A stretch of DNA of 20,597 bases, taken from IMG/VR virus record IMGVR_UViG_2534681697_000013. The stretch is one strand, 5' to 3'. A program made the position numbers and the translations under genes. The notes under the pieces were generated by a model, which worked only from the letters and a program-made list of their open reading frames with translations, was not told the origin of the DNA and searched no databases. The DNA is from a virus. Taxonomy: Duplodnaviria > Heunggongvirae > Uroviricota > Caudoviricetes. Positions 318 through 14,917 of this stretch are shown in pieces (within the stretch, counting starts at the first letter, position 1; the number at the start of each line of letters is the position of its first letter).

Positions 318-3298
<2,981 letters not shown>

Positions 3299-3374
3299 AA
3301 CCCTTGCTGCGTCTGGAATGTCGTTTTCCATGCTTTTGATGACCGTTCATCACCCTTCCAGTTTTTCGCGGTTT

Positions 3375-3428
3375 TGTGTATTGCAATGTGTATTGCAAAT
3401 TGGCGATCGGGATGGGTGTGTATTGCAA
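3375..3428 (+). repeat. Three direct copies of TGTGTATTGCAA (3375..3386, 3387..3398, 3417..3428); candidate integrase arm-type sites
   Basis: Exact 12-mers between the left junction and the int start; two more copies sit just inside the right junction. Confidence 0.55.
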
Positions 3429-3446
3429 ATCTCTTGAGGGCTTTTA

Positions 3447-4688
3447 ATGGCTATTGAAAACAAACTCAGTGACAAACTGTTAAAGAGTCTTGTCGGAAAA
3501 CGGCAGGACAAACAAAAAACAATAGCGGATGGGCGCGGGTTGTCTGTGCGTGTAAGCATGGTTGGGGGGATCAGCTTTGTTTTTTACTATCGTCTTGGTG
3601 GCAGGGAATCCCCTCCGGTATGGCTTACACTTGGTCGCTATCCTGACATGTCTCTTGCAACGGCCAGGCGCATGCGTGATCAGTGCCGTGAATGGCTGGC
3701 TGAAAATCTGGACCCCCGCAGGCAAATAAAACTTGCTGCCGAAAAAACTATGCAACCAGTGACCGTAAGGGATGCGCTGTTTTACTGGTACGACAATCAC
3801 GCCACAACAGCCAGAAAAGAGCATGAATATTTAATAAAACGATTTGAAAAGCATATCTTCCCCTATATCGGTGATATGGCTATAGAACAGTGCAAATTAC
3901 ACACATGGCTTACCGTCTTTGACAGGATCAAAAAAAATGCGCCTGTTATGTCTGGTGCAATTTTTCTTGATATCAAACAGGCGTTGCGTTTTTGTCGCGT
4001 CAGGCAATACATCGCGTGCGATCCCTTTGGAGATATTAACGTAAGTTATGTCGGGCGCTCATCCGGTATAAGGGATCGCGTTCTTAATATCAATGAAACC
4101 GCTGATGTATGGTCTTATGCTTACGGTAATAATTTGCTAACTCTGTCATCAATATATAACCGAAGAATAATGGTTATCTGCTTGGTGTTTGGTTGCCGAC
4201 AGCAGGAGGCGAGGCTATCCACCTGGGACGAATGGGATTTAAAAAACTGGGTATGGACAGTCCCAAAAGAGCACAGCAAAAACAAGGAGGCTATAGTAAG
4301 GCCTGTTCCTGACGGAATAAAACAATGGATCGTTAATCTTTACGCAGAAACAAAAAATCGCGGTTATGTTGTCGGTTGTGCTTTGCAAAGGGCGACAATA
4401 ACAGGGGCTGCAAACAGAATATGCAGGCGTCTTGGTCATGATACTAATGGCTTGTGGTGCATACATGATTTCAGGCGCACATTTTCCACTACGCTTAATG
4501 ATATGGGGGCGGATCCTTATATTGTCGAACTTCTTTTAGGTCATAAAGTGAAAGGGGTTGCTGGTGTTTACAATAAAAGCAGGCATATAAAGAAAAAACT
4601 TGAGGTGCTTAATATGTGGGTTAATTACCTTAATACGATAGCAGGATTTAACAACAACGTTATCGAGCTTAATAAAGAGGTGGTGTGA
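3447..4688 (+). CDS. int: Tyrosine recombinase / integrase (P4-type), 413 aa
   Basis: ORF with upstream GAGGG; C-terminal HDFRRTF...LLGHK...GVAGVYNKS is the tyrosine recombinase catalytic region. AT-richer than the flanking lambda genes. Confidence 0.92.
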   Translation: MAIENKLSDKLLKSLVGKRQDKQKTIADGRGLSVRVSMVGGISFVFYYRLGGRESPPVWLTLGRYPDMSLATARRMRDQCREWLAENLDPRRQIKLAAEKTMQPVTVRDALFYWYDNHATTARKEHEYLIKRFEKHIFPYIGDMAIEQCKLHTWLTVFDRIKKNAPVMSGAIFLDIKQALRFCRVRQYIACDPFGDINVSYVGRSSGIRDRVLNINETADVWSYAYGNNLLTLSSIYNRRIMVICLVFGCRQQEARLSTWDEWDLKNWVWTVPKEHSKNKEAIVRPVPDGIKQWIVNLYAETKNRGYVVGCALQRATITGAANRICRRLGHDTNGLWCIHDFRRTFSTTLNDMGADPYIVELLLGHKVKGVAGVYNKSRHIKKKLEVLNMWVNYLNTIAGFNNNVIELNKEVV

Positions 4689-4689
4689 T

Positions 4690-4947
4690 ATGGCAATTTA
4701 TTCTCTTGTTGATGAAAACGATTTGCGCACAATGAAGGACATTGATCGGTTCATTCGTGAAAAAGAGTGCATAGCACTTACCACGCTGGCAAACTCAACA
4801 CGCTGGAAAATGGAGCAGGCAGGTAAATTCCCGCGACGTATCAAGATCGGTGAACGTGCTGCAGGGTATCGACTTTCAGAGGTTCAGGCATGGATCCGTG
4901 GTGAGTGGCATCCTGGATGGAAACCTGGAAAAACAAAACAGCAATAA
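4690..4947 (+). CDS. alpA: AlpA-family wHTH regulator / excisionase-like protein, 85 aa
   Basis: Starts 2 nt after int stop; motif IALTTLANSTRWKMEQAGKFPRRIKIGERAAGYRLSEVQAWI matches the AlpA family. Confidence 0.8.
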   Translation: MAIYSLVDENDLRTMKDIDRFIREKECIALTTLANSTRWKMEQAGKFPRRIKIGERAAGYRLSEVQAWIRGEWHPGWKPGKTKQQ

Positions 4948-4960
4948 CCAGTAAATAATG

Positions 4961-4983
4961 CCCCTCATCACGAGGGGTTTTTT
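4961..4983 (+). terminator. Intrinsic terminator after alpA
   Basis: Stem CCCCTC / GAGGGG with loop ATCAC, followed by TTTTTT. Confidence 0.7.
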
Positions 4984-5003
4984 GTCTATAAGGTAAAAAC
5001 GCG

Positions 5004-5582
5004 ATGAATAAAAATATTGCCGTGACGGGCAAGGGGTACGCTCGTCCAGTGAAAAAATTCTGCGATATTCGTGATCTCGTCGTTCTGCGCTTTGATAGTG
5101 TGAACGTTCGTGTGGTGTATCTGAACGGCGATCCGTGGTTTGTTGCAAAAGATGTTTGTGCTGCGCTGGAACTAACCAATTCGCGTACGGCGTTGCAGAT
5201 GCTTGATGATGATGAAAAGGGAGTAAATTTAACTTACACCCCAGGAGGAAATCAGAATATGAGAATTATCTCTGAGTCAGGTTTCTACAAACTAATAGCC
5301 CGCAGCCGCAAAGCAACGACGCCTGGCACATTTGCTCATCGTTTCAGTAACTGGGTATTCAGAAATGTGATACCAGGTATCAGAAAAACGGGGACTTATG
5401 GTATCCCGTGGGGTGCATTACAGGATTTTTCCCGCCGTAAAGAGCAATATCAAATAAGTGCCAGCGAGAAGGGGAGGGAGCTACAGGCATGTAAGCGCAA
5501 AAAGCGTGAGCTGGAGGAAGAAGAAAAAACGCTGATACGTGAATATCAGCCTGAGTTTTACTTTGGTAACCGCATTCAGTGA
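5004..5582 (+). CDS. Bro-N domain protein (antirepressor-like), 192 aa
   Basis: N-terminus VVYLNGDPWFVAKDVCAALELTNSRTALQMLDDDEKG...GGNQNMRIISESGFYKLIARSRKA matches the Bro-N family; C-terminus is a charged coiled-coil-like tail. Confidence 0.78.
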   Translation: MNKNIAVTGKGYARPVKKFCDIRDLVVLRFDSVNVRVVYLNGDPWFVAKDVCAALELTNSRTALQMLDDDEKGVNLTYTPGGNQNMRIISESGFYKLIARSRKATTPGTFAHRFSNWVFRNVIPGIRKTGTYGIPWGALQDFSRRKEQYQISASEKGRELQACKRKKRELEEEEKTLIREYQPEFYFGNRIQ

Positions 5583-5591
5583 CAAAACAAA

Positions 5592-5612
5592 GGCGACCGC
5601 AAAAGGGTCGCC
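5592..5612. terminator. Hairpin between convergent genes (possible bidirectional terminator)
   Basis: Stem GGCGACC / GGTCGCC, loop GCAAAAG. T-rich tract only on the minus-strand side; none on the plus side. Confidence 0.5.
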
Positions 5613-5678
5613 AGTGGGAACAAGGGAAAACAAAAGCATCACCAACAATGCCACATTTGCGGCTGGTGGGCAATGTGA

Positions 5679-5858
5679 TCAGTCAGATTTGGTTCGTTCC
5701 AAGGTTTGCAACGAGAGCTTTTTCCTGTGCTCTTTAAGGAATTTCTCAAGAGCAAACGAACAAGGTGCGAATCTTTCTGATTCATGTTCATGCGCTATAT
5801 TTTTGCGTCGTCTCTTACGAGTTGGTGATGGTGTTTTGGTTGATTCTGTGTCGCTCAT
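5679..5858 (-). CDS. Small basic hypothetical protein, 59 aa (below the ORF-track size cutoff)
   Basis: Minus ATG at 5858 to TGA at 5679 encodes MSDTESTKTPSPTRKRRRKNIAHEHESERFAPCSFALEKFLKEHRKKLSLQTLERTKSD; weak AGGA upstream; directly downstream of the 101-aa minus ORF. Confidence 0.3.
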   Translation of the reverse strand: MSDTESTKTPSPTRKRRRKNIAHEHESERFAPCSFALEKFLKEHRKKLSLQTLERTKSD

Positions 5859-5915
5859 GGTGCTGTCCTGTAAAGCAATGCGCCTGCGTTCCTCAAACTA
5901 TGGCGCTGATATTGG

Positions 5916-6221
5916 CTATTCATGCTCTTTGACCTTGCGTCGCTGGAGTTCTTCACGCGCGACGGTGACGAGTTGCCCGATCTCCTCGGCTGCTTTGATG
6001 CCGATTTGTTCGACCTTAGCCAGGGCATCCAGTGACGACACAAGGGGATTTTCTCCGCTGCCTTCTGCTTGGCGGCGGGCTATTTCTCCGCGCATGGCGG
6101 TTACGATAAATCCGGCATTGCTTTCACCGTCCAGCTTAACGGATTCCATCCCTTGCATAACATCTAGTGGGACTCTGACAGTTGTCAGTTGTGATTTTGC
6201 GTTTTTGTTAGCCGTTGCCAT
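5916..6221 (-). CDS. Hypothetical protein, 101 aa; possible ribbon-helix-helix-type regulator
   Basis: AGGAG 8 nt upstream of ATG; N-terminal QLTTVRVPLDVMQGMESVK resembles a beta-strand plus helix start. Transcribed divergently from the operator region. Function is inferred. Confidence 0.5.
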   Translation of the reverse strand: MATANKNAKSQLTTVRVPLDVMQGMESVKLDGESNAGFIVTAMRGEIARRQAEGSGENPLVSSLDALAKVEQIGIKAAEEIGQLVTVAREELQRRKVKEHE

Positions 6222-6242
6222 TTCTGAAACTCCTAATCATCG

Positions 6243-6320
6243 GTGTGTTTCAGTATACACAAAAAAAGAAATACAAAAAGCCTTGACGTGTGTTTCATGC
6301 GCTCATAACATGAAACACAC
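6243..6320. promoter_or_regulatory. Divergent promoter region with operator-like repeats (candidate genetic switch)
   Basis: Plus strand: TTGACG (6283..6288), 17 bp, TAACAT (6306..6311). Perfect 12-bp inverted repeat GTGTGTTTCATG (6288..6299) / CATGAAACACAC (6309..6320), plus a third half-site GTGTGTTTCA at 6243..6252 over a minus-strand TATACT -10 candidate (6252..6257). Confidence 0.5.
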
Positions 6321-6348
6321 CGAAAGGATTGTTGAAATACAAAGAGCA

Positions 6349-6382
6349 ACGCCCCGCAGTGCTGGGAACACATACGGGGCGT
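6349..6382 (+). other. Stem-loop in the 5' leader of the rightward operon
   Basis: 8-bp stem ACGCCCCG / CGGGGCGT with an 18-nt loop, no T tract after it; lies between the promoter and the first ORF. Confidence 0.35.
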
Positions 6383-6411
6383 CTAACCAACAACGTAAAC
6401 TAGGAGCCGTT

Positions 6412-6609
6412 ATGGTTGCTGTAAATCATATACCACACCTTGTACACACACAAACGGCCTTTGTGTGGCGTTTTCTGGCACTGAGTGCCGGAGAATCTCA
6501 AATCATCCACGTAACCGCCTGGACGGAACGCGAAGCGCGTAGCCGTTGCCCGTCCGGTTGTGTTGCTGTATTCGCTGCAAAAATCCGCCAGGGAGTGAGT
6601 CATGCTTAA
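6412..6609 (+). CDS. Hypothetical small protein, 65 aa
   Basis: AGGAG 5 nt upstream of ATG 6412; stop overlaps the next ORF start at 6602. It is the C-terminal frame of the otherwise implausible track ORF 5539..6609. Confidence 0.4.
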   Translation: MVAVNHIPHLVHTQTAFVWRFLALSAGESQIIHVTAWTEREARSRCPSGCVAVFAAKIRQGVSHA

Positions 6610-6787
6610 AACCTTCCGTGTATTTGCCCGAGCTGTTAACCCAATAGGCCACACAATTGGTATCGCTCAGAATGTGAAGGCTGTTAATGTTCAGACGGCT
6701 ATTGCTGCGGTGAGAAGCGAATCATCAGAATATGGCTTATCACAAGTCATTATTTCAGCAGTGTATGAATTAAAAGAGGTGCATTAA
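6602..6787 (+). CDS. Hypothetical protein, 61 aa
   Basis: GGAGTGAG upstream of ATG; overlapping, translationally coupled operon layout. Confidence 0.45.
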   Translation: MLKTFRVFARAVNPIGHTIGIAQNVKAVNVQTAIAAVRSESSEYGLSQVIISAVYELKEVH

Positions 6788-6978
6788 TGCAGGAAATTAC
6801 ATTACACGAAGCCGCTGAACGTGCGCACCAGACAGAAATTATTTGCCGCCTTCTTGAGGTATACCCGAACAAAATTACAGATGCTGATATATCCGCACTG
6901 GCGAGCCTACTGGCGCGTCTTTCGGGAAGTGTCGCTAGTTTTTTGATTGAGGAAGAAAGTAAGCTGGTGGGGGATTAA
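6787..6978 (+). CDS. Hypothetical protein, 63 aa
   Basis: AGAGGTG upstream of ATG; start overlaps the preceding ORF end. Confidence 0.45.
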   Translation: MQEITLHEAAERAHQTEIICRLLEVYPNKITDADISALASLLARLSGSVASFLIEEESKLVGD

Positions 6979-7200
6979 ATGAATACAGAACGGGAAGTCT
7001 TTTTTAAATTGTTAGCATGTGCAGAAAGTTCATTAACTTTAAATAATTCAGCAAAAGCAATATTAAATATGTGGCTTGATTGCATAAATGACAATGAAGA
7101 TGCAAATATTGCTTATGGCCTGTTGTCACTTATTGATGAATCAGCAGAAAAACTCAATGACGCAATAAATAGTGCCCTGCTATCAAATAAGTCGAGTTAA
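6979..7200 (+). CDS. Hypothetical protein, 73 aa (AT-rich gene)
   Basis: Starts right after the previous stop with GGGGGA upstream; markedly lower GC than its neighbours. Confidence 0.5.
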   Translation: MNTEREVFFKLLACAESSLTLNNSAKAILNMWLDCINDNEDANIAYGLLSLIDESAEKLNDAINSALLSNKSS

Positions 7201-7217
7201 GTCGAGGAATAAATAAT

Positions 7218-7517
7218 ATGGAAATGAAAAATTCTGGCTTTATTGCCAGCGGCCCCGCTCGACCTGAATTTATGAACGGCGATATTTACCGCGATAAATA
7301 CGGCGGCACGGTAACGATTAAAGGCGTGGCAGAACGGCGCATCACTTACCGCCGTGAGGGGTATAGCTATGACTGCGTGATGCCTGTTTATCAGTTCCGG
7401 CGTGATTTTTCCCTGGTATATGCCGCACCCCGCAGTAAGCCCATCAGCAGGGAAAAAGCGTGGGGAAATATCCAGAAAATGAAAACCATGATTAACGGAT
7501 TCAGAGGTAAAAAATGA
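7218..7517 (+). CDS. Hypothetical protein, 99 aa
   Basis: GAGGAA upstream of ATG; stop overlaps the primase start. Confidence 0.55.
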   Translation: MEMKNSGFIASGPARPEFMNGDIYRDKYGGTVTIKGVAERRITYRREGYSYDCVMPVYQFRRDFSLVYAAPRSKPISREKAWGNIQKMKTMINGFRGKK

Positions 7518-9268
7518 AACTGGCACCGAACGTAAAACAGCAGTCACGCGGCATAAAACACAAAGGAACAGAAGTAATTATTTTTGCGGGTAGTGATGCC
7601 TGGGCACACGCGAAACAATGGCAGGAACATGATGCGCGTATGGCCGGAGATAATGAGCCTCCTGTGTGGCTTGGGGAGCAGCAGCTATCCGAACTGGATA
7701 ATCTGCAAATTGTGCCGGAAGGCCGAAAATCAGCACGCATATACAGGGCCGGATATCTTGCGCCTGTAATGATAAAGGCGATTGGTCAGAAGCTGGCGGC
7801 AGCAGGCGTACAGGATGCAAATTTTTATCCTGAGGGTATGCACGGCCAGGAGGTGCAGAACTGGCGCGAATATCTGGCCCGTGAACGCCAGAATCTTTCT
7901 GATGGTCTGGTCATTGAGCTTCCGGTAAAGCAAAAGGCGCAACTTTCGCAGATGGCGGACAGTGAGCGCGCGCAGTTGCTTGCCGATCGCTTTGATGGCG
8001 TTTGCGTACATCCTGAAAGTGAAATCGTTCACGTATGGCGCGGCGGGGTATGGTGTCCGGTCAGCACAATGGAACTTAGCCGCGAAATGGTGGCGATCTA
8101 TTCAGAGCACAGGGCCACTTTCAGCAAGCGCGTAATCAATAACGCCGTGGAAGCGTTAAAAGTTATTGCCGAACCAATGGGCGAGCCGTCTGGCGATTTG
8201 CTGCCGTTCGCCAATGGTGCGCTTGACCTGAAAACGGGGGAATTTTCCCCGCACACGCCGGAGAACTGGATCACCACGCACAACGGCATTGAGTACACGC
8301 CACCAGCACCAGGGGAGAACATCCGCGATAACGCGCCAAACTTTCATAAATGGCTTGAGCACGCAGCCGGAAAAGACCCGCGCAAGATGATGCGTATATG
8401 TGCCGCGCTGTACATGATTATGGCGAACCGGTACGACTGGCAGATGTTTATTGAGGCCACCGGAGACGGCGGGAGCGGTAAAAGTACATTCACACACATA
8501 GCCAGCCTTCTGGCAGGGAAACAGAACACGGTAAGCGCTGAAATGACATCGCTTGATGATGCTGGTGGACGTGCGCAGGTTGTCGGGAGTCGTCTTATCG
8601 TCCTGGCTGACCAGCCGAAATATACAGGCGAAGGAACGGGCATCAAGAAAATCACAGGCGGCGACCCCGTGGAAATTAACCCGAAATATGAAAAGCGTTT
8701 CACGGCGGTAATCAGGGCGGTGGTGCTGGCGACCAACAACAACCCGATGATATTCACCGAACGGGCCGGAGGTGTGGCACGTCGTCGCGTGATTTTCCGT
8801 TTCGACAATATCGTCAGTGAGGCCGAAAAAGACAGGGAGCTACCGGAAAAGATTGCGGCTGAAATCCCCGTTATTATCCGCCGATTGCTGGCGAACTTTA
8901 CCGACCCTGAGAAGGCACGGGCTTTACTACTGGAACAGCGTGACGGTGATGAAGCACTGGCAATAAAGCAACAGACGGATCCGGTTATTGAGTTTTGCCA
9001 GTTCCTGAATTTTCTGGAGGAAGCGCGCGGCCTGATGATGGGTGGCGGTGGTGATTCAGTGAAGTACACGACCAGGAACAGCCTTTACCGCGTCTATCTG
9101 GCGTTTATGGCATACGCGGGCAGGAGCAAACCGCTAAACGTGGCTGAGTTCAGCAAGGCCATGAAGCCAGCGGCGAAAGTTTACGGGCATGAATATATTA
9201 CGCGAAAAGTTAAGGGAGTAACGCAGACCAACGCAATTACAACAGACGATTGCGACGCGTTTTTATAA
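7514..9268 (+). CDS. Primase-helicase (P4 alpha-type), 584 aa
   Basis: Walker A GDGGSGKST and downstream helicase-like region; last gene of the small-ORF operon and followed directly by iterons. Confidence 0.88.
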   Translation: MKLAPNVKQQSRGIKHKGTEVIIFAGSDAWAHAKQWQEHDARMAGDNEPPVWLGEQQLSELDNLQIVPEGRKSARIYRAGYLAPVMIKAIGQKLAAAGVQDANFYPEGMHGQEVQNWREYLARERQNLSDGLVIELPVKQKAQLSQMADSERAQLLADRFDGVCVHPESEIVHVWRGGVWCPVSTMELSREMVAIYSEHRATFSKRVINNAVEALKVIAEPMGEPSGDLLPFANGALDLKTGEFSPHTPENWITTHNGIEYTPPAPGENIRDNAPNFHKWLEHAAGKDPRKMMRICAALYMIMANRYDWQMFIEATGDGGSGKSTFTHIASLLAGKQNTVSAEMTSLDDAGGRAQVVGSRLIVLADQPKYTGEGTGIKKITGGDPVEINPKYEKRFTAVIRAVVLATNNNPMIFTERAGGVARRRVIFRFDNIVSEAEKDRELPEKIAAEIPVIIRRLLANFTDPEKARALLLEQRDGDEALAIKQQTDPVIEFCQFLNFLEEARGLMMGGGGDSVKYTTRNSLYRVYLAFMAYAGRSKPLNVAEFSKAMKPAAKVYGHEYITRKVKGVTQTNAITTDDCDAFL

Positions 9269-9281
9269 TTTTTTGTAAAAG

Positions 9282-9503
9282 CCATCTACCCCATCTACCT
9301 GAACGAAATAAACGCATATTATTCAACATGATAAGTGGGTATAGGGCTAGGTAGAAGGCTAATAAAAGCTCTCTACCTCTTCTACCTGATTTTATCAGTT
9401 TCAGGTAGCAGGGTAGACGGCAGGTAGAGGAGTCAAAAAAGCTATCTACCCGCTGAAAGCGGCGCCATTACTGACATGATGAGCATTCGGGTAGATGGGT
9501 AGA
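9282..9503. repeat. Iteron cluster with AT-rich core; candidate replication origin
   Basis: (C)CATCTACC-type repeats on the plus strand at 9284, 9293, 9371, 9381, 9444 and inverted GGTAGA copies at 9350, 9404, 9412, 9423, 9490, 9498; terminal blocks CCATCTACCCCATCTACC and GGGTAGATGGGTAGAGG mirror each other; AT-rich stretch around 9300..9345. Confidence 0.6.
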
Positions 9504-9553
9504 GGGGGGGAGGCACAACTAAAAACTTTTTAAACGAGGGGGGGTGAAAATAA

Positions 9554-9868
9554 ATGCGCATACATAAAAATCACTTAACAAACATGCCAGCCGAAAACAT
9601 GAATCAGGGGCGACAAATGACCAAAATTCGCAGAGACAGAACACAGGCAAAATATAAAGCGTTAGACATGACAGAGCTTTCCTTAAAGGTGGCAATCAAA
9701 GCGATAGACCACCACACACGGGCAGGATACGCGAAGGAACATCCCGACCTGATAAGCGCATTCATGACCACAGCAGCGGCAAACTTTGCCACGCTGACAG
9801 AACGGGAGATTGCCGAAGCGGAACAGGTGACAACCATCAATGTTAAAACCGGAGAGCAGACAGCATGA
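9554..9868 (+). CDS. Hypothetical protein, 104 aa (true start may be a downstream Met)
   Basis: ORF after a G-rich Shine-Dalgarno-like tract; stop overlaps the SSB-like gene start (ATGA). Confidence 0.5.
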   Translation: MRIHKNHLTNMPAENMNQGRQMTKIRRDRTQAKYKALDMTELSLKVAIKAIDHHTRAGYAKEHPDLISAFMTTAAANFATLTEREIAEAEQVTTINVKTGEQTA

Positions 9869-10287
9869 CAGCACAGATAGCGGCTTACGGGCGGCTGGTG
9901 GCTGACCCGCAGTTAAAGACCACCAGCAAAGGGACACAAATGGCGATGGCGAGTATGGCGGTTCCCCTGCCGTGCAGCCAGGCAGATGACGGAACGGCGA
10001 CGATGTGGTTATCCGTCCTGGCGTTTGGCAGACAGGCCGACGCACTGGCAAAACACCACAAAGGCGAACTGGTGAGCGTGGCGGGTAACATGCAGGTAAG
10101 CCAGTGGACAGGCCAGAACGGCGAAACGCGGCGGGGCTGGCAGGTTATCGCAGACAGCGTAATCAGTGCGCGAACGGCGCGACCGGGCGGCAAAAAAGGC
10201 CAGCAGGGGCAGGCCACTGACGCACTGAACAGGGCAAAACAACAGTCGGGGAATGATGATCCGTACGGCGATAATATACCGTTTTAA
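9865..10287 (+). CDS. ssb: Single-stranded DNA-binding protein-like, 140 aa
   Basis: OB-fold-like core WLSVLAFGRQADALAKHHKGELVSVAGNMQVSQWTGQNGETRRGWQVIADSV, Gly/Gln-rich linker and a C-terminal ...DDPYGDNIPF tail resembling the SSB DDDIPF tip. Confidence 0.7.
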   Translation: MTAQIAAYGRLVADPQLKTTSKGTQMAMASMAVPLPCSQADDGTATMWLSVLAFGRQADALAKHHKGELVSVAGNMQVSQWTGQNGETRRGWQVIADSVISARTARPGGKKGQQGQATDALNRAKQQSGNDDPYGDNIPF

Positions 10288-10304
10288 ATTCTGCAAACAA
10301 AAAG

Positions 10305-10333
10305 ATGCCGGAAAAAAATAGATTTTCCGGCAT
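10305..10333. terminator. Strong hairpin after the SSB-like gene (putative terminator)
   Basis: Perfect 11-bp stem ATGCCGGAAAA / TTTTCCGGCAT with a 7-nt loop; no clear T tract after it, so terminator function is uncertain. Confidence 0.4.
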
Positions 10334-10498
10334 GCTACATAAATCCCGACCAAAGGAAGTAAATACATTAACACGAATTATCAGCACTGAAGTTGTTACG
10401 GCATATTTTATACAACATTGCACTTGGTTGCATGTGTTCGCATAGCAGACATCGGTAATAGAATATATTCACAATTATTTGTAATGAATGTAAAGAGG

Positions 10499-11545
10499 AT
10501 GAGTATGGTTGATTTATATTCGCCTACACAGCTTGTGCAGGTGGCTAATGCTGAAGATGTGCAAAAAAATTAAATGCGTTGTTTACCAGTTTGTTTTTCA
10601 CTCGCTCGGTAATGTTTGAATCGAGAGACATTATTCTTGATACGATCGACGATCCAAATATCCCGATCGCGGCGTTTTGCTCTCCTATGGTGGGCAGTAA
10701 AGTTTCACGAGATGAGGGATACGAATCAAAAACAATTCGTCCAGGTTATATGAAGCCGAAAAGCAGCATTGATCCAAATAAGTTAGCTGTGCAGCCCTGC
10801 TGGTGTGTCACCTGAGCAATACAATGCTTTTGGGGCGCGTAATATTAAAGTTAAACAGGCGATTGTAAATCAGGCTAAAGCTATTCGTGCACGTATTGAA
10901 TGGCTTGCTGTTCAGGCAATCACAACGGGGAAAAATATCATTGAGGGCGATGGTATTGAACGTTATGAGCTGGACTGGAATATAAAACCACAAAATATCA
11001 TCACTCAGTCTGGCGGTACTGAGTGGTCAGGTAAGGATAAAGAAACTTTTGATCCAAATGATGATATTGAGAGCTACGCAGAATTTAGTGAGGGCGTCAC
11101 TAATATCATCATTATGGGTGGTAATGTATGGAAGAAATACCGTTCATTCAGAGCGATAAAAGAGGCTTTGGATACCCGTCGTGGTTCTAATTCCGAACTG
11201 GAAACGGCCCTTAAAGACCTTGGTGATTCGGTGAGTTTTAAAGGGTATATGGGCGATGTTGCGATTGTTGTTTACAGCGGGCGTTATACCGACGAGGACG
11301 GAACAGAAAAACATTTCCTTGATCCTGATTTGATGGTGCTTGGCAATACGGCTCTTCAGGGGATTGTCGCCTATGGCGGTATTCAGGATCCGGAGCTAAT
11401 CCGAATGGGGCTGACTAAAGCCGAACTTGCACCGAAAAACTATATTGTGCCTGGTGATCCGGCTATTGAATATGTGCAGACACATTCAGCACCACAGCCA
11501 ATACCGGCCCGCATCAATCGTTTTGTTACCGTTCGCATTGGCTAA
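10499..11545 (+). pseudogene. Major capsid protein gene (lambda gpE-like), disrupted by two frameshifts
   Basis: Three consecutive frames each align with successive parts of gpE. First: MSMVDLYSPTQLVQVANAEDVQKN*, stopping at 10571. Second, to 10815: KKLNALFTSLFFTRSV...PGYMKPKSSIDPNKLAVQP. Third, 10805..11545: ...ITQSGGTEWSGKDKETFDPNDDIESY...DTRRGSNSELETALKDLG...GDVAIVVYSG.... The breaks sit in an A7 run (10563..10569) and a CCC run (10795..10797). Confidence 0.75.
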
Positions 11546-11554
11546 GGGGGAGCA

Positions 11555-11896
11555 ATGGCTACTCATTACACTGAACTCATGGCTGGCACTGAAGCACTGG
11601 TGACTACGCTGGGGATATTTTCAGCTAATAAAGGGGTAATTCCTGCATTTACGCCACTGATGCAGGAAGATGCAACAGGTGCACTGGTGGTATGGGATGG
11701 TTCGAGCGTAGGTAAAGCGGTTTATGTTTCCGCTGTACAAATCGACACCGCGAAAAAAACACAGGCTCAGGTCTATAAGACAGGTGTCTTAAATGTTGAT
11801 GCTCTGAACTGGCCTGAGTCTGTTAAAGAACTGTCAGTAAAGGTTGCAGCGTTTGTTGGCTCAGGTATTTCTGTTCAGCCGCTGGCTCGTGTGTAA
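11555..11896 (+). CDS. Head decoration protein (lambda gpD-like), 113 aa, apparently intact
   Basis: AAGGGGGA upstream of ATG. LVVWDGSSVGKAVYVSAV, VYKTGVLNVDALNWPE and AAFVGSGISV parallel the gpD motifs [34 protein letters not shown] and [10 protein letters not shown]. Confidence 0.72.
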   Translation: MATHYTELMAGTEALVTTLGIFSANKGVIPAFTPLMQEDATGALVVWDGSSVGKAVYVSAVQIDTAKKTQAQVYKTGVLNVDALNWPESVKELSVKVAAFVGSGISVQPLARV

Positions 11897-11907
11897 AGGG
11901 GGATACA

Positions 11908-12291
11908 ATGCAGAATGATTACAATGACCTTAAGCCAATTGCCGAAATGATGTACCCGAATCCAGCTGTAGAGGAATTAAAAGCTATCGCTGACAAAATG
12001 TGTTTAAGCGAGCGCCTTGTTGATATGAATCAGGTGATGGAAATTACAACCCTGAGTCGTCGTACACTGCTAAACCTTGAGGCTAGTGGAGAGTTCCCGG
12101 AGCGTGTGCAGGTTACGGAAGGGCGTAAGGCCTGGTATTTAAGTGAAGTGATCGACTGGATAAATAATATTCCTCGCGCTTCTGAATATTGCCGCGTACC
12201 TGTCCCAAAAAAGCCAGATGCGGCGCTATGCCTCAAGATTGAGCGTGTACGCCGCAATGCACGGGATGGTCGCTATAAGCTGATTGGTTGA
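11908..12291 (+). CDS. AlpA/MerR-type wHTH DNA-binding protein, 127 aa
   Basis: AGGGGGA upstream of ATG; motif MNQVMEITTLSRRTLLNLEASGEFPERVQVTEGRKAWYLSEVIDWI matches the AlpA family. Sits between the decoration gene and cos. Confidence 0.6.
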   Translation: MQNDYNDLKPIAEMMYPNPAVEELKAIADKMCLSERLVDMNQVMEITTLSRRTLLNLEASGEFPERVQVTEGRKAWYLSEVIDWINNIPRASEYCRVPVPKKPDAALCLKIERVRRNARDGRYKLIG

Positions 12292-12343
12292 TGAAATTAG
12301 GGCCCGCTCTGGCTGGCGGGTCCTTTCCGGTGATCCGGTAGGC

Positions 12344-12381
12344 TACGGGGCGGCGACCTCGCGGGTTTTCGCTATTTATGA
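12344..12381. other. cos site: lambda-type cosN (cohesive-end 12-mer GGGCGGCGACCT at 12348..12359)
   Basis: TACGGGGCGGCGACCTCGCGGGTTTTCGCTATTTATGA matches the lambda cosN region; downstream sequence up to the small terminase gene differs from lambda cosB. Confidence 0.75.
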
Positions 12382-12492
12382 GCCTTTTTCGGGTGCTGGT
12401 GGTGGTTTTGTTGTTCGCTCTATCTCTATGAATAAAAAGGAAAAGATAAAGCCAATACACCAACCTGAAACATTACTTAAGTGGGGATATTG

Positions 12493-13035
12493 ATGAAATC
12501 GCACCTGATGAACAAAAAAAACATGGCGCAAAGCTGCCGTGTAAGTGCGACAGCGTTCGACAAGTGGGGAGTGACTCCCGTTGAACGTAAAGGCCGCGAG
12601 GCGTTTTATGATGTTGCCAGCGTAATAGACAATCGGGTTAGCAATGCAATTAACCAGATTACAGACGACAAAGGCGAGATTGATGATGATGAACTCCTAC
12701 GAGTCAGGATCAGATTGCTGACAGCACAGGCAGAGGCGCAGGAGCTTAAAAACGAGCGCGAACGCGGCGACGTTATTGATACAGCGTTTTGTATATACGT
12801 GCTTTCAAAATTGGCGAGTCAGATTTCTTCAATCATGGACAGCCTGCCGCTTGCCATGACAAGGAAGTTTCCCGACATGAAGCCGTCTATGCTGGATGGA
12901 CTGAAAAAAGAAGTTATCAGAGCCTGTAACGCATGCGCAAAACTTGACGAAAACATACCGCTGATGCTGTCCGATTATCTGATGGAAACTGCCGGAAACG
13001 TACCGGATAAGTTGCAGCCGAATAAAGATAAGTAA
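12493..13035 (+). CDS. Terminase small subunit homologue (Nu1-like), about 180 aa; start could instead be 12481 (GTG) or 12508 (ATG)
   Basis: LLTAQAEAQELKNERERGDVIDTAFCIYVLSKLASQISSIMDSLPLAMTRKFPDMKPSMLDGLKKEVIRACNACAKLDENIPLMLSDYL parallels the Nu1 C-terminal half in this window; N-terminus MNKKNMAQ... parallels Nu1 MEVNKKQLA...; immediately downstream of cos. Confidence 0.8.
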   Translation: MKSHLMNKKNMAQSCRVSATAFDKWGVTPVERKGREAFYDVASVIDNRVSNAINQITDDKGEIDDDELLRVRIRLLTAQAEAQELKNERERGDVIDTAFCIYVLSKLASQISSIMDSLPLAMTRKFPDMKPSMLDGLKKEVIRACNACAKLDENIPLMLSDYLMETAGNVPDKLQPNKDK

Positions 13036-13046
13036 CGTAGTACGCT

Positions 13047-13328
13047 ATGACTGAATCCGAAATACTGCGATTAATCCGCCGTGCTTGTGGAATCAGCAAG
13101 CAGCATGACGAACAGGCCACGCAGCCGGACAGCGTGACCGCAGATAATTATGTGCGTGTAGTGGCTGAGGTGATGCGCCGTGACGGTATTGAGCTTAACG
13201 GCGTGGATATGCGCAACATACGAACAAGAGTCCTTGAGTTGCTGGCATATCGTCGCCGTTCTCAACAACGGAGGGAGAGCGCGAAAAATACTTACCAGTG
13301 GAAGAAGCCGGAACGATTGCGGCGGTAA
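13047..13328 (+). CDS. Hypothetical protein, 93 aa
   Basis: ORF 12 nt after the small terminase stop; no strong Shine-Dalgarno; function unknown. Confidence 0.45.
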   Translation: MTESEILRLIRRACGISKQHDEQATQPDSVTADNYVRVVAEVMRRDGIELNGVDMRNIRTRVLELLAYRRRSQQRRESAKNTYQWKKPERLRR

Positions 13329-13579
13329 CTTGCTGATATTCCCGATAACGCAAAATTGCGCTGGCTGACTTGTTGCATTGCAAAAAGTTAAGCAGGAAGG
13401 CACGGCCTGTAAGATGGGATGCAGTAAGTAGTTCAAGGCTACCTTGTGCTGGCACGCACAGTTAAGCCGTCGGTGCTGGATATCCCCCACTGGGGGAAAA
13501 GCTGGCTACATCCCTCACATCTGAGGACTGATAACGCGACATTGCGCTGGCTGGCAAAGTGCAAAATTGCACGATGGCC

Positions 13580-13726
13580 TAACCCATTGATTATTTCGAA
13601 AACCTGCAATGCAGGAAATCGGGGAAGTAAGCCTAAGCTATTGATTGTTTCGAAAACCCCCATTGGGGGATGTCGGGAAAGTAAGACTAACCCATTGATT
13701 CTTCCACAATCCTCAATTTGAGGAGG
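13580..13726. repeat. Tandem direct repeats of about 54 bp (2.5 copies), each with a short inverted repeat
   Basis: Units begin TAACCCATTGATTATTTCGAAAACC, TAAGCTATTGATTGTTTCGAAAACC and TAACCCATTGATTCTTCC; each contains a small palindrome (CTGCAATGCAG, CCCCCATTGGGGG, CCTCAATTTGAGG) and ends GG(G)AAGTAAG(C/A)C. Confidence 0.55.
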
Positions 13727-14041
13727 CCGGAACGTCTACATAGCTGCATCGCCGTAATGATGATTCAGCCCACCAGCCAAATCAGCACAGCAACGACAGA
13801 ATAGCCCGACACAGAAAAACCACGAATATGGGGTTTTTGTTATGACATGGTCATGATGACCACTCATACAAAACAGGTAAAGCCCACCAGCCTGATTAAA
13901 GGTTAACCGGAAAAAAGCCAGGTATCCAATCTCGATATGGGGATCCCTATATCGACATTAACGCCCACTAAAACTGTGCATATATGCATAGAAAAAGCAT
14001 CCACCAGCTTTATGACGGATGCCGCTCATCTTATAAATAAT

Positions 14042-14065
14042 CGTGTATTGCAGTGTGTATTGCGA
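14042..14065 (+). repeat. Two direct copies of (C/T)GTGTATTGC(A/G) (14042..14052, 14054..14065); candidate arm-type sites at the right end
   Basis: Same motif and orientation as the three copies upstream of int. Confidence 0.5.
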
Positions 14066-14137
14066 CTCCTTTAAACGATAGGTCTGAGCATTCGTAATGT
14101 ACTGTTTTTAAATTTTATTTTTTCCTGTCTTTTCATA

Positions 14138-14145
14138 AAGGCGAT
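14138..14145. other. Right junction core (attR-like) AAGGCGAT
   Basis: Direct repeat of 3239..3246; portal-like sequence resumes in frame immediately after. Confidence 0.6.
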
Positions 14146-14917
14146 GTATGCCGCCACCATTGAGAGTGAGCTGGATACGCAGTCAGCGATGGATTTTATT
14201 CTGGGCGCGAACAGTAAGGAGCAGCGGGACAAGCTGACCGGCTGGATTGGTGAAATTGCCGCGTATTACGCCGCAGCACCGGTCCGTCTGGGAGGCGCAA
14301 AAGTGCCGCACCTGATGCCGGGGGACTCACTGAACCTGCAGACGGCTCAGGACACGGATAACGGCTACTCCGTGTTTGAGCAGTCACTGTTGCGGTATAT
14401 CGCTGCCGGGCTGGGTGTCTCGTATGAGCAGCTTTCCCGGAATTACGCCCAGATGAGCTACTCCACGGCACGGGCCAGTGCGAACGAGTCGTGGGCGTAC
14501 TTTATGGGGCGGCGAAAATTCGTCGCATCCCGTCAGGCGAGCCAGATGTTTCTGTGCTGGCTGGAAGAGGCCATCGTTCGCCGCGTGGTGACGTTACCTT
14601 CAAAAGCGCGTTTCAGCTTTCAGGAAGCCCGCAGCGCCTGGGGGAACTGTGACTGGATAGGCTCCGGTCGTATGGCCATCGATGGTCTGAAAGAAGTACA
14701 GGAAGCGGTGATGCTGATAGAAGCCGGACTGAGTACCTACGAGAAAGAGTGCGCAAAACGCGGTGACGACTATCAGGAAATTTTTGCCCAGCAGGTCCGT
14801 GAAACGATGGAGCGCCGTGCAGCCGGTCTTAAACCGCCCGCCTGGGCGGCTGCGGCATTTGAATCCGGACTGCGACAATCAACAGAGGAGGAGAAGAGTG
14901 ACAGCAGAGCTGCGTAA
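14138..14917 (+). pseudogene. B: Portal protein gpB, C-terminal part (portal reading frame resumes at 14146)
   Basis: Translation (KA)MYAATIESELDTQSAMDFILGANSKEQRDKLTGWIGEIAAYY...GLRQSTEEEKSDSRAA* is the portal C-terminus; the last 20 nt overlap the GTG start of C. Confidence 0.9.

Follow-up and report, generated by a model that had tools for sequence, protein, structure and literature searches.

Copies of a Rha/Roi gene-internal segment joined to predicted IHF sites form a putative operator-mimic array in the right arm of a helper-embedded PICI

Little is understood of how PICIs of Gram-negative bacteria recognize their helper phages and act on them. For the helper-embedded PICIs (HE-PICIs), an attP has been described that carries a doubled TGTATTGC arm motif at positions -81 and +132 relative to the crossover (Tommasini, Mageeney & Williams 2023; PMC10111431). 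The sole mention of IHF in that paper is that the arm motif is unlike an IHF site, and a text search of it found no mention of non-coding DNA or of Roi. Lambda is reported to induce and mobilise EcCICFT073, an experimental model, but the phage signal for this element had not been identified as of 2018, and our literature text searches for the signal found nothing later than that year. In satellite P4, P2 Cox boxes are present at PLL, and the late promoters respond to Ogr/Delta. In lambda cosB, the gpNu1 R sites are interleaved with an IHF site, I1. The Roi protein of phage HK022 reportedly binds within its own gene, beside an IHF site. Regulators of the Rha/Roi family are common in lambdoid and Stx phages and poorly understood; the pRha domain (Phage_pRha) is present in both Roi and Rha.

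The element analyzed here occupies about 3252-14150 of a 20,597-nucleotide stretch of viral DNA (the window) and is an HE-PICI satellite situated within the portal gene of a lambdoid prophage. Between the two portal halves, annotated in RefSeq as portal fragments at both flanks, lie genes for int, AlpA, Bro-N, primase, SSB, capsid, decoration, AlpA-like, and TerS-like proteins; we assigned the element to the HE-PICIs because this gene set and the attP motif fit the published type. Likeness to the elements of PMC10111431 covers the element itself, its insertion in a lambdoid late gene, and the arm motif, whose copy at 14041-14064 has a partner at 3375-3398 (and a third copy at 3417-3430). We looked for copies ~81 bp upstream and ~132 bp downstream of the crossover, a comparison that covers only the last ~100 bp of the right-end region, and found the doubled tgTGTATTGCantgTGTATTGCa in two co-oriented copies, with ~80 bp from motif end to crossover and ~130 bp from crossover to motif start. 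The remainder of the right-arm non-coding zone is undescribed in that work. The sole exact copy of the lambda-type cosN 12-mer, GGGCGGCGACCT, is at 12348-12359, upstream of the TerS-like gene; as this is 1 kb upstream of the right-end region, a cos site within the region was ruled out. Some relatives have a second cos, of the SfV/ST64B type, in the right-end zone, which is absent from this window. Scanning the genome collection with the primase yielded three loci, while the same scan with the TerS-like protein found no relative. Domain annotation of the satellite's genes revealed no Rha-domain protein, and any binder of the array described below would thus be helper-encoded.

The 800-bp right end is the non-coding right arm of this HE-PICI, and consists of cis-element DNA in four parts: a box array (13326-13738), three Chi sites, a 65-bp conserved module, and the attP arm (Table 1). 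An earlier note, made from the sequence alone, had described ~800 bp of non-coding DNA packed with repeats and palindromes, and every feature that it listed was recovered at, or within a few bases of, the place it gave. The 54-bp tandem array spans 13577-13738, with three copies at 100/80/61% identity (TRF: 13577-13700, period 54, score 164); the 12-mer AGCCCACCAGCC is exact at both 13767 and 13881; and the perfect palindrome TGCATATATGCA and the near-palindrome TCGATATGGGGATCCCTATATCGA are as described. The pair of direct repeats, given as about 42 bp, was overstated: 24 nt align at 92% (13344-13367 and 13530-13553), and the remaining ~18 nt are two different palindromes, TTGCATTGCAA and GTGCAAAATTGCAC. 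These repeats and palindromes are real and far above chance expectation. With arms of ≥5 and a spacer of ≤4, 14 palindrome calls, representing nine distinct palindromes, were made in 13325-13740, compared with 1.9 ± 1.6 (maximum 8) in shuffles and a mean of 2.0 (maximum 9) in 92 other 416-bp stretches of the same sequence.

We found no convincing ORF in this region, in agreement with the earlier note: in RefSeq, the last satellite gene is followed by no annotated CDS before the portal fragment, the best-conserved stretch contains 1-nt indels among relatives, and no hidden conserved protein-coding gene was detected. The ORFs of 31-91 aa that can be read are by-products of the repeats and are not maintained in relatives. 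One of the candidates we considered, a hydrophobic minus-strand protein of 43 aa (13736-13867), was ruled out by the 1-nt indels in the conserved block. The small RNA that had been proposed did not gain support. There was no Rfam match, either in the whole window at gathering scores or in 13200-14250 at E≤5, and the models searched included the C4/IsrK immunity RNAs of P4-like elements; fold z-scores were only -1.75 and -2.3, values too modest to retain a small RNA or terminator around 13740-13900; and the promoter scan found no sigma-70-like site adjacent to the array. The one weak sigma-70 consensus match, at 14012-14041, is 270 bp from the array, although activator-dependent promoters can escape such scans. 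A search for tRNA and tmRNA returned none, and no strong terminator was found between the last ORF and the array. Three other kinds of repeat were rejected: (i) a CRISPR array, as the units are contiguous, only 61-80% alike, and variable within each unit, and no cas-like genes are annotated in the satellite; (ii) ToxI-like repeats of a type III toxin-antitoxin system, as no plus-strand ORF >45 aa lies downstream before the att site; and (iii) host REP/BIME repeats, which also combine a palindrome with an IHF site, as no resemblance to REP was seen by eye and the units match phage genes.

Table 1. Positions of the features of the right arm, with the partner att block at the left boundary
Feature	Position	Strand	Description
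attL identity block AAGGCGATTTATG	3239-3251		Partner of attR block
Rha-type box U0a	13326..13367	-	IHF-like core, 10-nt spacer, palindrome CGCAAAATTGCG (13349-13360) plus GCTGGCTG
Palindrome TTGCATTGCAA	13373..13383		5+1+5
Palindrome TCCCCCACTGGGGGA	13483..13497		7+1+7; core as in unit 2, IHF part degenerate
Palindrome CCTCACATCTGAGG	13513..13526		5+4+5; unit-3-type variant, recurs in related right ends
Rha-type box U0b GATAACGCGACATTGCGCTGGCTG	13530..13553	-	92% copy of 13344-13367, imperfect dyad
Palindrome GTGCAAAATTGCAC	13559..13572		6+2+6; longer versions in relatives, e.g., CCATAGTGCAAAATTGCACTATGG, AAGTGCAAAAATGCACTT
54-bp unit 1	13577..13630	-	Perfect IHF consensus 13580-13592, 10-nt A/T-rich spacer, palindrome CCTGCAATGCAGG (13603-13615)
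54-bp unit 2	13631..13684	-	Perfect IHF consensus 13634-13646, spacer, perfect palindrome CCCCCATTGGGGG (13657-13669)
54-bp unit 3	13685..13738	-	Perfect IHF consensus 13688-13700, spacer, palindrome TCCTCAATTTGAGGA (13710-13724)
Chi	13770..13777	-	Inside first AGCCCACCAGCC 12-mer
Conserved non-coding module (65 bp) CAGAATAGCC..AAAAACCACGAATATGGGGTTTTT..GGTCATGATGACC	13797..13861		Weak A/U-flanked hairpin and 13-bp palindrome
Chi	13884..13891	-	Inside second AGCCCACCAGCC 12-mer
Near-palindrome TCGATATGGGGATCCCTATATCGA	13932..13955		Member of recurring CGATATGG..CCATATCG hairpin family of related satellites
Perfect palindrome TGCATATATGCA	13977..13988		Seen solely in portal-type satellites; ~155 bp from att crossover
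Third Chi	14001..14008	-	In loop of inverted repeat GCATCC..GGATGC (13997-14022)
Doubled arm-type motif cGTGTATTGCagtGTGTATTGCg of HE-PICI attP	14041..14064	+	Published motif and spacing (PMC10111431)
attR identity block AAGGCGATGTATG	14138..14150	+	Crossover region inside portal gene; right satellite boundary

The box array contains at least nine operator-like palindromes, and for four of these an IHF consensus that is perfect or nearly perfect lies 9-10 bp away. Exactly three perfect matches to this consensus, WATCAANNNNTTR, occur in the 20.6 kb (0.76 expected), one per 54-bp unit, and each is preceded on its strand by TTTTCGAAA(T/C)A or a similar A/T-rich tract; we regard these as predicted IHF-binding sites. 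Box U0a begins at the stop codon of the last satellite ORF, and its IHF-like core, TAACTTGCTGATA (13326-13338), read on the minus strand, has one mismatch to the consensus. The palindrome at 13483..13497 is found together with an intact IHF core in two related satellites (L137 and L156) and in EcCICFT073.

The origin of these units was indicated by blastn against a 2.3-Gb phage database. Units 1, 2, and 3 matched phage roi or anti-repressor genes (E = 2e-3, 1e-10, and 3e-13, respectively), all at the same position in the gene, nt ~120-180. Unit 1 is antisense to roi of phage CP-1639 (87.8% over 41 nt), and its palindrome, which includes the HK022 roi core CTGCATTGCAG, is the same as in Roi allele b (L088). 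Unit 2 is antisense to roi of VT2-Sakai, HK629, and many Stx phages (90.6% over 53 nt, gene nt 128-180); the phage counterpart of its palindrome is the imperfect CCCCCAATGGTGG in all 51 sampled loci of that allele. Unit 3 is antisense to a Roi-like ‘anti-repressor’ gene of phage phi330 (96% over 50 nt). The reverse complement of U0, CAGCCAGCGCAATTTTGCGT, matches AGCCAACGCAATTTTGCGT at 19 of 20 nt in a Rha-family gene of the host prophage (L119 23358-23882), at the place that corresponds by homology to the Roi palindrome. One further unit type, the fourth, comes from a relative (L004) and matches genes annotated as ‘Rha family transcriptional regulator’, in which the phage copy is a perfect 25-bp palindrome. 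Units 1-3, U0, and this relative's unit therefore all match the palindrome segment of pRha-domain genes. For most other palindrome types of related right ends, blastn detected no phage counterpart; a search with 7080-7270 of L004 gave no match, and one with 7000-7345 of a further relative (L005) returned the second cos site only.

Judged by these matches, the array is made of copies of a Rha/Roi gene-internal segment (the whole unit in the three 54-bp units) joined to predicted IHF sites, and the palindromes differ from unit to unit, being those of different Rha/Roi alleles, among them the Rha of the very prophage that hosts the satellite. Binding-site arrays had been expected here by the earlier note, and putative arrays are indeed present; their sequences are of this kind, however, and are not integrase or excisionase sites. 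A further prediction of the comparison is that an operator lies inside Rha-family genes generally, as exemplified by the 25-bp palindrome in one CDS and the HK022-type site with its IHF site. In HK022 (40.7 kb), the sole exact copy of the palindrome falls within roi, and 11 nt away is a perfect IHF site, of which the genome has only three; this fits what is reported of Roi and IHF in that phage. The architecture is the same in the satellite: unit 1 shares the core CTGCATTGCAG, which in HK022 is 11 nt from AATCAATGATTTA, and units 2 and 3 reproduce the corresponding segment of other roi alleles at 90-96% identity. Unlike the HK022 site, which lies in a gene, the satellite sites are in no Rha/Roi gene but in the non-coding DNA of an element that has no Rha protein of its own, and are arranged as a tandem array of several alleles, some of them perfected or recombined with a generic IHF core.

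Roi alleles are near-identical after about residue 66 and vary in the recognition-helix region and in the palindrome, the inner triplet of which shows paired changes (CCC/GGG, TGC/GCA, TCA/TGA). No more than 60 nt separate the recognition helix and the palindrome in the gene, and linkage by itself could explain why they occur together. Further, the L200-type Rha protein has a recognition helix that is almost that of Roi alleles c, d, and e, yet its palindrome differs, which a simple helix-operator code cannot accommodate.

Among 5,426 complete E. coli genomes, about 1,200 contain matches to parts of the region. The repeats are not absent from relatives: the unit design, with other palindromes, is shared by 37 of the 39 related right ends that we examined, as well as by EcCICFT073. 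These right ends are highly mosaic. The IHF core is kept 9-10 nt from the palindrome across satellites while its four N positions vary, and it is kept even in chimeric units whose phage source gene has none. Unit 2 is a perfected version of an imperfect phage site, and in EcCICFT073 each of the two halves is present in symmetrised form, as CCCCCATTGGGGG and CCACCATTGGTGG. Satellites whose integrases differ retain the design, and the same unit types are found beside unrelated arm motifs and att sites. Mismatches within near-palindromes (five G.T, three A.C, and eight other) showed no strand-specific wobble bias, in what is a weak test with only 16 informative positions. Together, the fixed IHF spacing, the chimeric units, the perfected palindromes, and the lack of wobble bias can be read as signs of DNA-level selection in satellites. 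We found such arrays described nowhere in our searches of the literature on PICI inducers, on Rha/IHF palindromes, and on Chi in PICIs.

We consider the chances about even that the array is a set of binding sites for Rha/Roi together with IHF. Both this binding and its consequence are what we infer from the anatomy of the array, its matches to phage genes, and the conservation of the design across satellites. The right arm would then consist of passive DNA elements that act in cis and are directed at both the helper phage and the host. Its first 415 bp would constitute an operator-mimic array, in which a full unit comprises a strong predicted IHF site and a palindrome of 13-15 bp, 9-10 bp away. 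During lytic growth of the helper, Rha/Roi protein and host IHF would load onto the arrays of the replicating, multi-copy satellite DNA, and the satellite would thereby titrate the helper's regulator. Such a sink, soaking up the helper regulator, is our preferred reading, held tentatively; alternatively, the bound Rha/Roi protein might be read by the satellite as a helper-specific signal. Either way, the copied sites suggest that satellites capture or read helper regulators through DNA. A broader and equally tentative idea is that the right arm may be an evolving multi-allele library of operator mimics on a common IHF scaffold, which would define the helpers that are sensed or sabotaged and would amount to a DNA-level record of helpers, exchanged as cassettes between E. 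coli PICIs. If the binding is true, helper Rha/Roi regulators captured or read through copied satellite sites would be a concrete, testable interface, and the array can be tested directly in EcCICFT073, which shares the design.

Known arrays offer partial parallels. Like the transactivation sites of P4, the boxes are repeated, satellite-borne sites that would bind DNA-binding proteins of the helper and couple the satellite to the helper cycle; the P4 sites, however, belong to promoters and do not copy any coding sequence of the helper, whereas here no promoter is evident and the sites are allele-specific, gene-internal copies. With lambda cosB the array shares the combination of winged-helix protein sites and an IHF bend in a compact nucleoprotein array, but cosN of the satellite is 1 kb upstream, and the units match regulator genes rather than cos.

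A P4-like arrangement, in which Rha/Roi and IHF at the array sense the helper and activate a satellite promoter, for example across attP into int-alpA in the circle, draws on the same binding-site evidence as the reading as a binding array. With several alleles in one array, more kinds of helper could be sensed; once the satellite is circular, ~550 bp separate the array from int downstream of it, and the phage inducer of E. coli PICIs had not been identified as of 2018. We nevertheless think an enhancer of this kind unlikely. With no promoter-like site beside the array (the sole, weak match being that at 14012-14041), the output of sensing is not visible; the array is 10 kb from int-alpA when the satellite is integrated; and lambda, in which we know of no Rha-family gene, induces EcCICFT073, such that the boxes cannot be a general induction switch. 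Similarly improbable, in our estimation, is an action through RNA, whereby the array, forming the 3' end of the transcript of the satellite late operon or of a read-through late transcript from the helper, would yield units that pair with roi or rha mRNA and lower its expression. Antirepressor genes are under antisense control in P22 (sar) and P1 (C4), which provides a precedent, and all five phage-matched unit types are antisense relative to the direction of the satellite genes, with 20-53 nt of complementarity at 87-96%, ample for antisense control, and with no convincing terminator separating the last ORF from the array. Against pairing with mRNA, the IHF core is conserved at its consensus positions only and is present also where the phage target has none, unit 2 departs from its target toward a perfect dyad, wobble bias favours neither strand, and neither an Rfam family nor more than weak fold z-scores were obtained.

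The units might instead be debris, or selfish palindromic repeats: fragments of Rha-family genes acquired by recombination with helpers, tandemly duplicated, and without a role. The late zones of PICIs are known to take up DNA from helpers, right ends are mosaic, and the units are exactly 18 codons long, with the source reading frame still open across units 2 and 1. Such an origin does not readily account for three different alleles of one 54-bp gene segment placed head to tail, for an IHF-palindrome spacing that is fixed in many satellites, for IHF cores added to palindromes whose source gene has none, for palindromes that have been perfected or symmetrised, or for a design that persists among satellites with different integrases, and we hold it to be quite improbable. 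Least credible of all is the view that the whole 800 bp serve as an attP arm in which integrase, excisionase, and IHF have arrayed sites, to which we give very little credence. An attP arm was expected here by the earlier note, and the region does end in one, with the doubled Int arm motif and the crossover at its far right, and IHF sites are typical of att arms; this arm, however, accounts for only the last ~100 bp. The units are 400-820 bp from the crossover, far past the published arm positions of -81 and +132, are of types shared by satellites with unrelated arm motifs and att sites, and match phage regulator genes rather than att sequences.

Beyond the array, the repeated 12-mer AGCCCACCAGCC holds the complement of Chi, and its repetition is thus that of Chi. 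The octamer, 5'-GCTGGTGG-3', has 10 exact copies in the window, all of them in the satellite, where 0.69 were expected, and related right ends contained 44 Chi in 18 kb. Based on their strand, we infer that the three right-end Chi are oriented to stop RecBCD coming from the cos/TerS (left, terminase) end; five plus-strand Chi elsewhere in the satellite would cover the other end. Chi-rich lambdoid phages without recombination modules have been described, among them phage LLS with 1 Chi per 1.86 kb (PMC12315714; Genome Res 2025). In common with these phages, the element is cos-packaged and has a Chi density well above the host average (10 in 10.8 kb, compared with 1 per 4.6 kb in E. coli), but it is a satellite, and its three right-end Chi are opposite to the lambda ‘active’ orientation. 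The clustering suggests that satellites may shield their cos-cut ends from RecBCD.

The 65-bp module was found in 29 IMG/VR contigs and in L005 and a second relative (L006), whose integrases and att sites differ. Coding is excluded by 1-nt indels among its copies, and hairpins were predicted for it with a fold z-score of just -1.75. Closer to the crossover, the palindrome TGCATATATGCA may be a candidate site for an accessory recombination protein.

The window covers the head-gene region of a lambdoid prophage, the portal gene of which is split by a ~10.9-kb insert whose genes all point rightward, an element of the type named 'helper-embedded PICI' by Tommasini, Mageeney and Williams (PMC10111431). 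Its non-coding right end spans from the stop codon of the last satellite ORF (13328) to the right junction. Near-unchanged copies of this region were found in 48 complete E. coli genomes, of which the 33 listed are all situated at a portal-gene fragment or next to one, and partial matches occur in ~1,200 of 5,426 E. coli genomes. Both the element type and the arm motif are already published (PMC10111431); literature searches returned no description of Rha/Roi-box-plus-IHF arrays, nor of Chi clustering in PICIs.

Features of the window and of the EcCICFT073 right end
Feature	Coordinates	Strand	Details
Large terminase gene	292-2217
gpW gene			also encoded in the window
Portal gene, two fragments	2417-3298; 14144-14917
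Insert genes			integrase, AlpA, frameshifted Bro-N, primase, SSB, lambda-E-like capsid, decoration, second AlpA-family, TerS-like, 93-aa ORF
Identity blocks	3239-3251; 14138-14150		AAGGCGAT(G/T)TATG
Doubled arm motif	14041-14064; partner 3375-3398		GTGTATTGCagtGTGTATTGC
cosN	12348-12359		exact lambda cosN 12-mer GGGCGGCGACCT, between second AlpA-family and TerS-like genes
Chi	12395-12402	plus	36 nt right of cosN
Unit 1	13577-13630		roi of CP-1639: 87.8% over 41 nt, E 2e-3
Unit 2	13631-13684		roi of VT2-Sakai, HK629, Stx phages: 90.6% over 53 nt, E 1e-10
Unit 3	13685-13738		Roi-like gene of phi330: 96% over 50 nt, E 3e-13
Chi	13770; 13884; 14001	minus	three in the right end
EcCICFT073 right end (E. 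coli CFT073)	L203 3655-4210		three IHF-plus-palindrome units and a CCACCATTGGTGG palindrome
EcCICFT073, other elements	L203 3655-4210		CCCACCAGCC, one base off Chi complement; CGTTATGGGGATCCCCATATCG hairpin

The 54-bp tandem array described in the earlier note was confirmed as three units (13577-13738; 100/80/61% identity; TRF score 164). On the minus strand, an exact match to the IHF consensus (WATCAANNNNTTR) is present in every unit, and the 20.6 kb has no others. A 9-10-nt A/T-rich spacer joins the IHF core to a perfect palindrome of 13-15 bp (CCTGCAATGCAGG, CCCCCATTGGGGG or TCCTCAATTTGAGGA), the dyad being lengthened in units 1 and 2 to ~25 bp by flanking CGA...TCG bases. A repeated 12-mer, a 12-bp palindrome and a 24-bp near-palindrome, all noted earlier, were likewise exact. 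The density of palindromes in 13325-13740 is not due to chance: 14 were called, where shuffled sequence gave 1.9 +/- 1.6 and stretches elsewhere in the sequence averaged 2.0. A minus-strand 74-aa ORF (13439-13663; MGVFETINSLGLLPRFPALQVFEIINGLG...) continues in the Roi frame across units 2 and 1 because each unit is exactly 18 codons long; having neither a ribosome-binding site nor conservation, it was taken as a by-product rather than a gene.

The pair of '42-bp' direct repeats reported in the same note held only in part: 24 nt align at 92% (13344-13367 and 13530-13553), and the remainder is a different palindrome in each copy. Both repeats open with an IHF-like core, the first of which (TAACTTGCTGATA) starts where the last ORF ends, at its stop codon, and each includes the palindrome CGCAAAATTGCG or a near copy. 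In reverse complement, the repeat matches at 19 of 20 nt inside the host prophage's 'Rha family transcriptional regulator' gene, a gene flanked by the lysis genes and nohD and located ~2 kb upstream of the window; the matched site and the Roi palindrome occupy homologous positions, ~19 residues past the RH of the recognition helix. These repeats are members of the same family as the 54-bp units. Related satellites contain complete units whose palindrome types recur, as variants, between the two repeats (at 13373, 13483, 13513 and 13559).

Searched against 50,697 phage genomes, the units had no matches outside genes annotated roi, Roi or anti-repressor; every match was antisense and fell at nt ~120-180 of the gene. 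Roi combines an N-terminal Phage_pRha domain with a C-terminal ANT/KilAC domain. Across a sample of 80 IMG/VR loci (L039-L118), Roi alleles are near-identical past ~residue 66 and differ in the recognition-helix region and the palindrome, both arms of whose inner triplet change together between alleles; in most, the palindrome is followed by TTTTCGAAAAAATCAATAACTTAGG, equal to the IHF consensus. The alleles are mosaic, with at least six classes over residues ~20-65 (recognition helix and wing), and in the class of L116 the compact palindrome is replaced by 8-bp inverted repeats 13 nt apart and the IHF consensus is absent. The roi gene of HK022 (L201 4656-5381) has the same layout of palindrome plus adjacent IHF consensus; its CTGCATTGCAG is the sole exact copy in the 40.7-kb genome, and the other two of three IHF consensus sequences are at or near attP. 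Clerget and Boccard reportedly found in 1996 that Roi binds a site in its own gene, closely linked to an IHF site, and that IHF stabilises this binding. The HK022 sequence fits that account. The Rha family gene of E. coli JNEC-KY176 (L200 952-1659) holds a perfect 25-bp palindrome (CAATTTCCACAGTCTGTGGAAATTG) within its coding sequence, located where Roi palindromes are. This type of Rha shares the recognition helix of Roi alleles c, d and e, yet has a different palindrome, which does not fit a simple helix-palindrome code.

As the earlier note had proposed, we compared related right ends, drawn from satellites near clpS, near narP and in other places, and from 80 IMG/VR loci found via the 93-aa ORF. 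All have 550-980 bp of non-coding DNA assembled from modules of the same kinds; 37 of the 39 examined contain one or more IHF-plus-palindrome units, invariably with 9-10-nt spacing and with differing palindromes (TTCGCCAGCGGCGAA, CAGCCAACGGCTG, GCGCAAAAATGCGC, AAGTGCAAAAATGCACTT, CCAATTTCC..GGAAATTGG). Rha-family genes of numerous E. coli genomes contain matches to the last of these; because the phage copy, a perfect 25-bp palindrome in coding sequence, has no IHF consensus, the satellite unit is a chimera that combines a borrowed palindrome with a generic IHF scaffold. The experimentally studied EcCICFT073 carries the same array, in which the imperfect Sakai-type site is represented by its two symmetrised halves (CCCCCATTGGGGG and CCACCATTGGTGG); the arm repeats of this element (GGTGTAGTTAAT, twice) are of another kind, and upstream of them lie its units, the CCACCATTGGTGG palindrome, CCCACCAGCC and the CGTTATGGGGATCCCCATATCG hairpin.

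Every phage-matched unit is antisense to the phage gene relative to satellite transcription, and no strong-terminator-like sequence precedes the units, as might be expected if they acted as antisense RNA. However, the IHF core is conserved at consensus positions and varies at N positions, keeps a fixed distance to the dyad, and is present even where the phage source has none, and in unit 2 the dyad is made perfect by one base at which the phage counterpart differs. Nor do near-palindrome mismatches, only 16 of them informative, show a strand-specific wobble bias, and the small RNA suggested in the earlier note found no backing, the region having no Rfam family match and unremarkable folds. On this evidence we favour putative protein-binding sites, at roughly even confidence, over antisense RNA, which we consider unlikely.

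As protein-binding sites, the array would require a binder from the helper, since the satellite encodes no Rha-domain protein; a helper-encoded Rha/Roi protein could fill this role. No promoter-like site adjoins the array, and lambda, which is not known to have a Rha-family gene, is reported to induce EcCICFT073. We therefore think it likelier that the array on a multi-copy replicating satellite would be a sink or decoy than that it would switch on induction in general; alternatively, it may serve in helper-specific sensing. Among known systems, those that come nearest are the Roi/IHF site of HK022 roi and, on satellite P4, the sites for helper proteins; unlike either, the array here has several alleles copied from the interior of helper genes and sits in satellite DNA that is non-coding. 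The idea of copied operators, with putative binding and function, is specific, applies widely and can be tested in a model that already exists.

The earlier note placed an attP arm in the region as probable; the att arm is the right ~100 bp only. The doubled motif with its partner and the two identity blocks together fit the attP geometry published in PMC10111431. Beyond the left doubled copy, the arm motif occurs a third time (TGTGTATTGCAAAT, 3417-3430), just upstream of the integrase start.

The repeated 12-mer (AGCCCACCAGCC) includes the complement of Chi. Ten Chi sites occur in the window (0.69 expected), five per strand and all within the satellite (5662-14008), and the helper DNA around it (~9.7 kb) has none; related right ends (22 distinct, 18 kb) hold 44, of which 31 share the orientation seen here. 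With GGGCGGCGACCT, the satellite has a cos site of its own. With cos at 12348, the three minus-strand Chi are the first correctly oriented for RecBCD entering from the TerS end, following the direction rules summarised in PMC12315714; the five plus-strand Chi elsewhere would serve the other end, and the sites presumably protect against RecBCD. Between the Chi sites is a 65-bp module (13797-13861), conserved in satellites with different integrases, whose 1-nt indels indicate that it is not coding. In the corresponding right-end zone, a related satellite near clpS in strain CFS3313 (L005 7237-7319) carries an 83-bp copy (92-95% identity) of the SfII/SfV/ST64B/phiP27-type cos region, which is probably an additional cos for another family of helpers.

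The helper prophage (L119; NZ_CP015912.1 4450000-4476000) has insertions of IS3 and ISVsa5, and its ren gene is split; it may therefore be defective even if satellite excision restored the portal gene. Just downstream of the frameshifted Bro-N gene, a plus-strand 356-aa ORF (5539-6609) with no Pfam match overlaps a RefSeq minus-strand YlcI/YnfO gene (5916-6221). The TerS-like 'terminase small subunit' (12493-13035) aligns through residues 66-148 with Nu1 profile positions 80-162, the C-terminal half only, so that its N-terminal DNA-binding part is different; in this it recalls the proteins by which PICIs redirect helper packaging.
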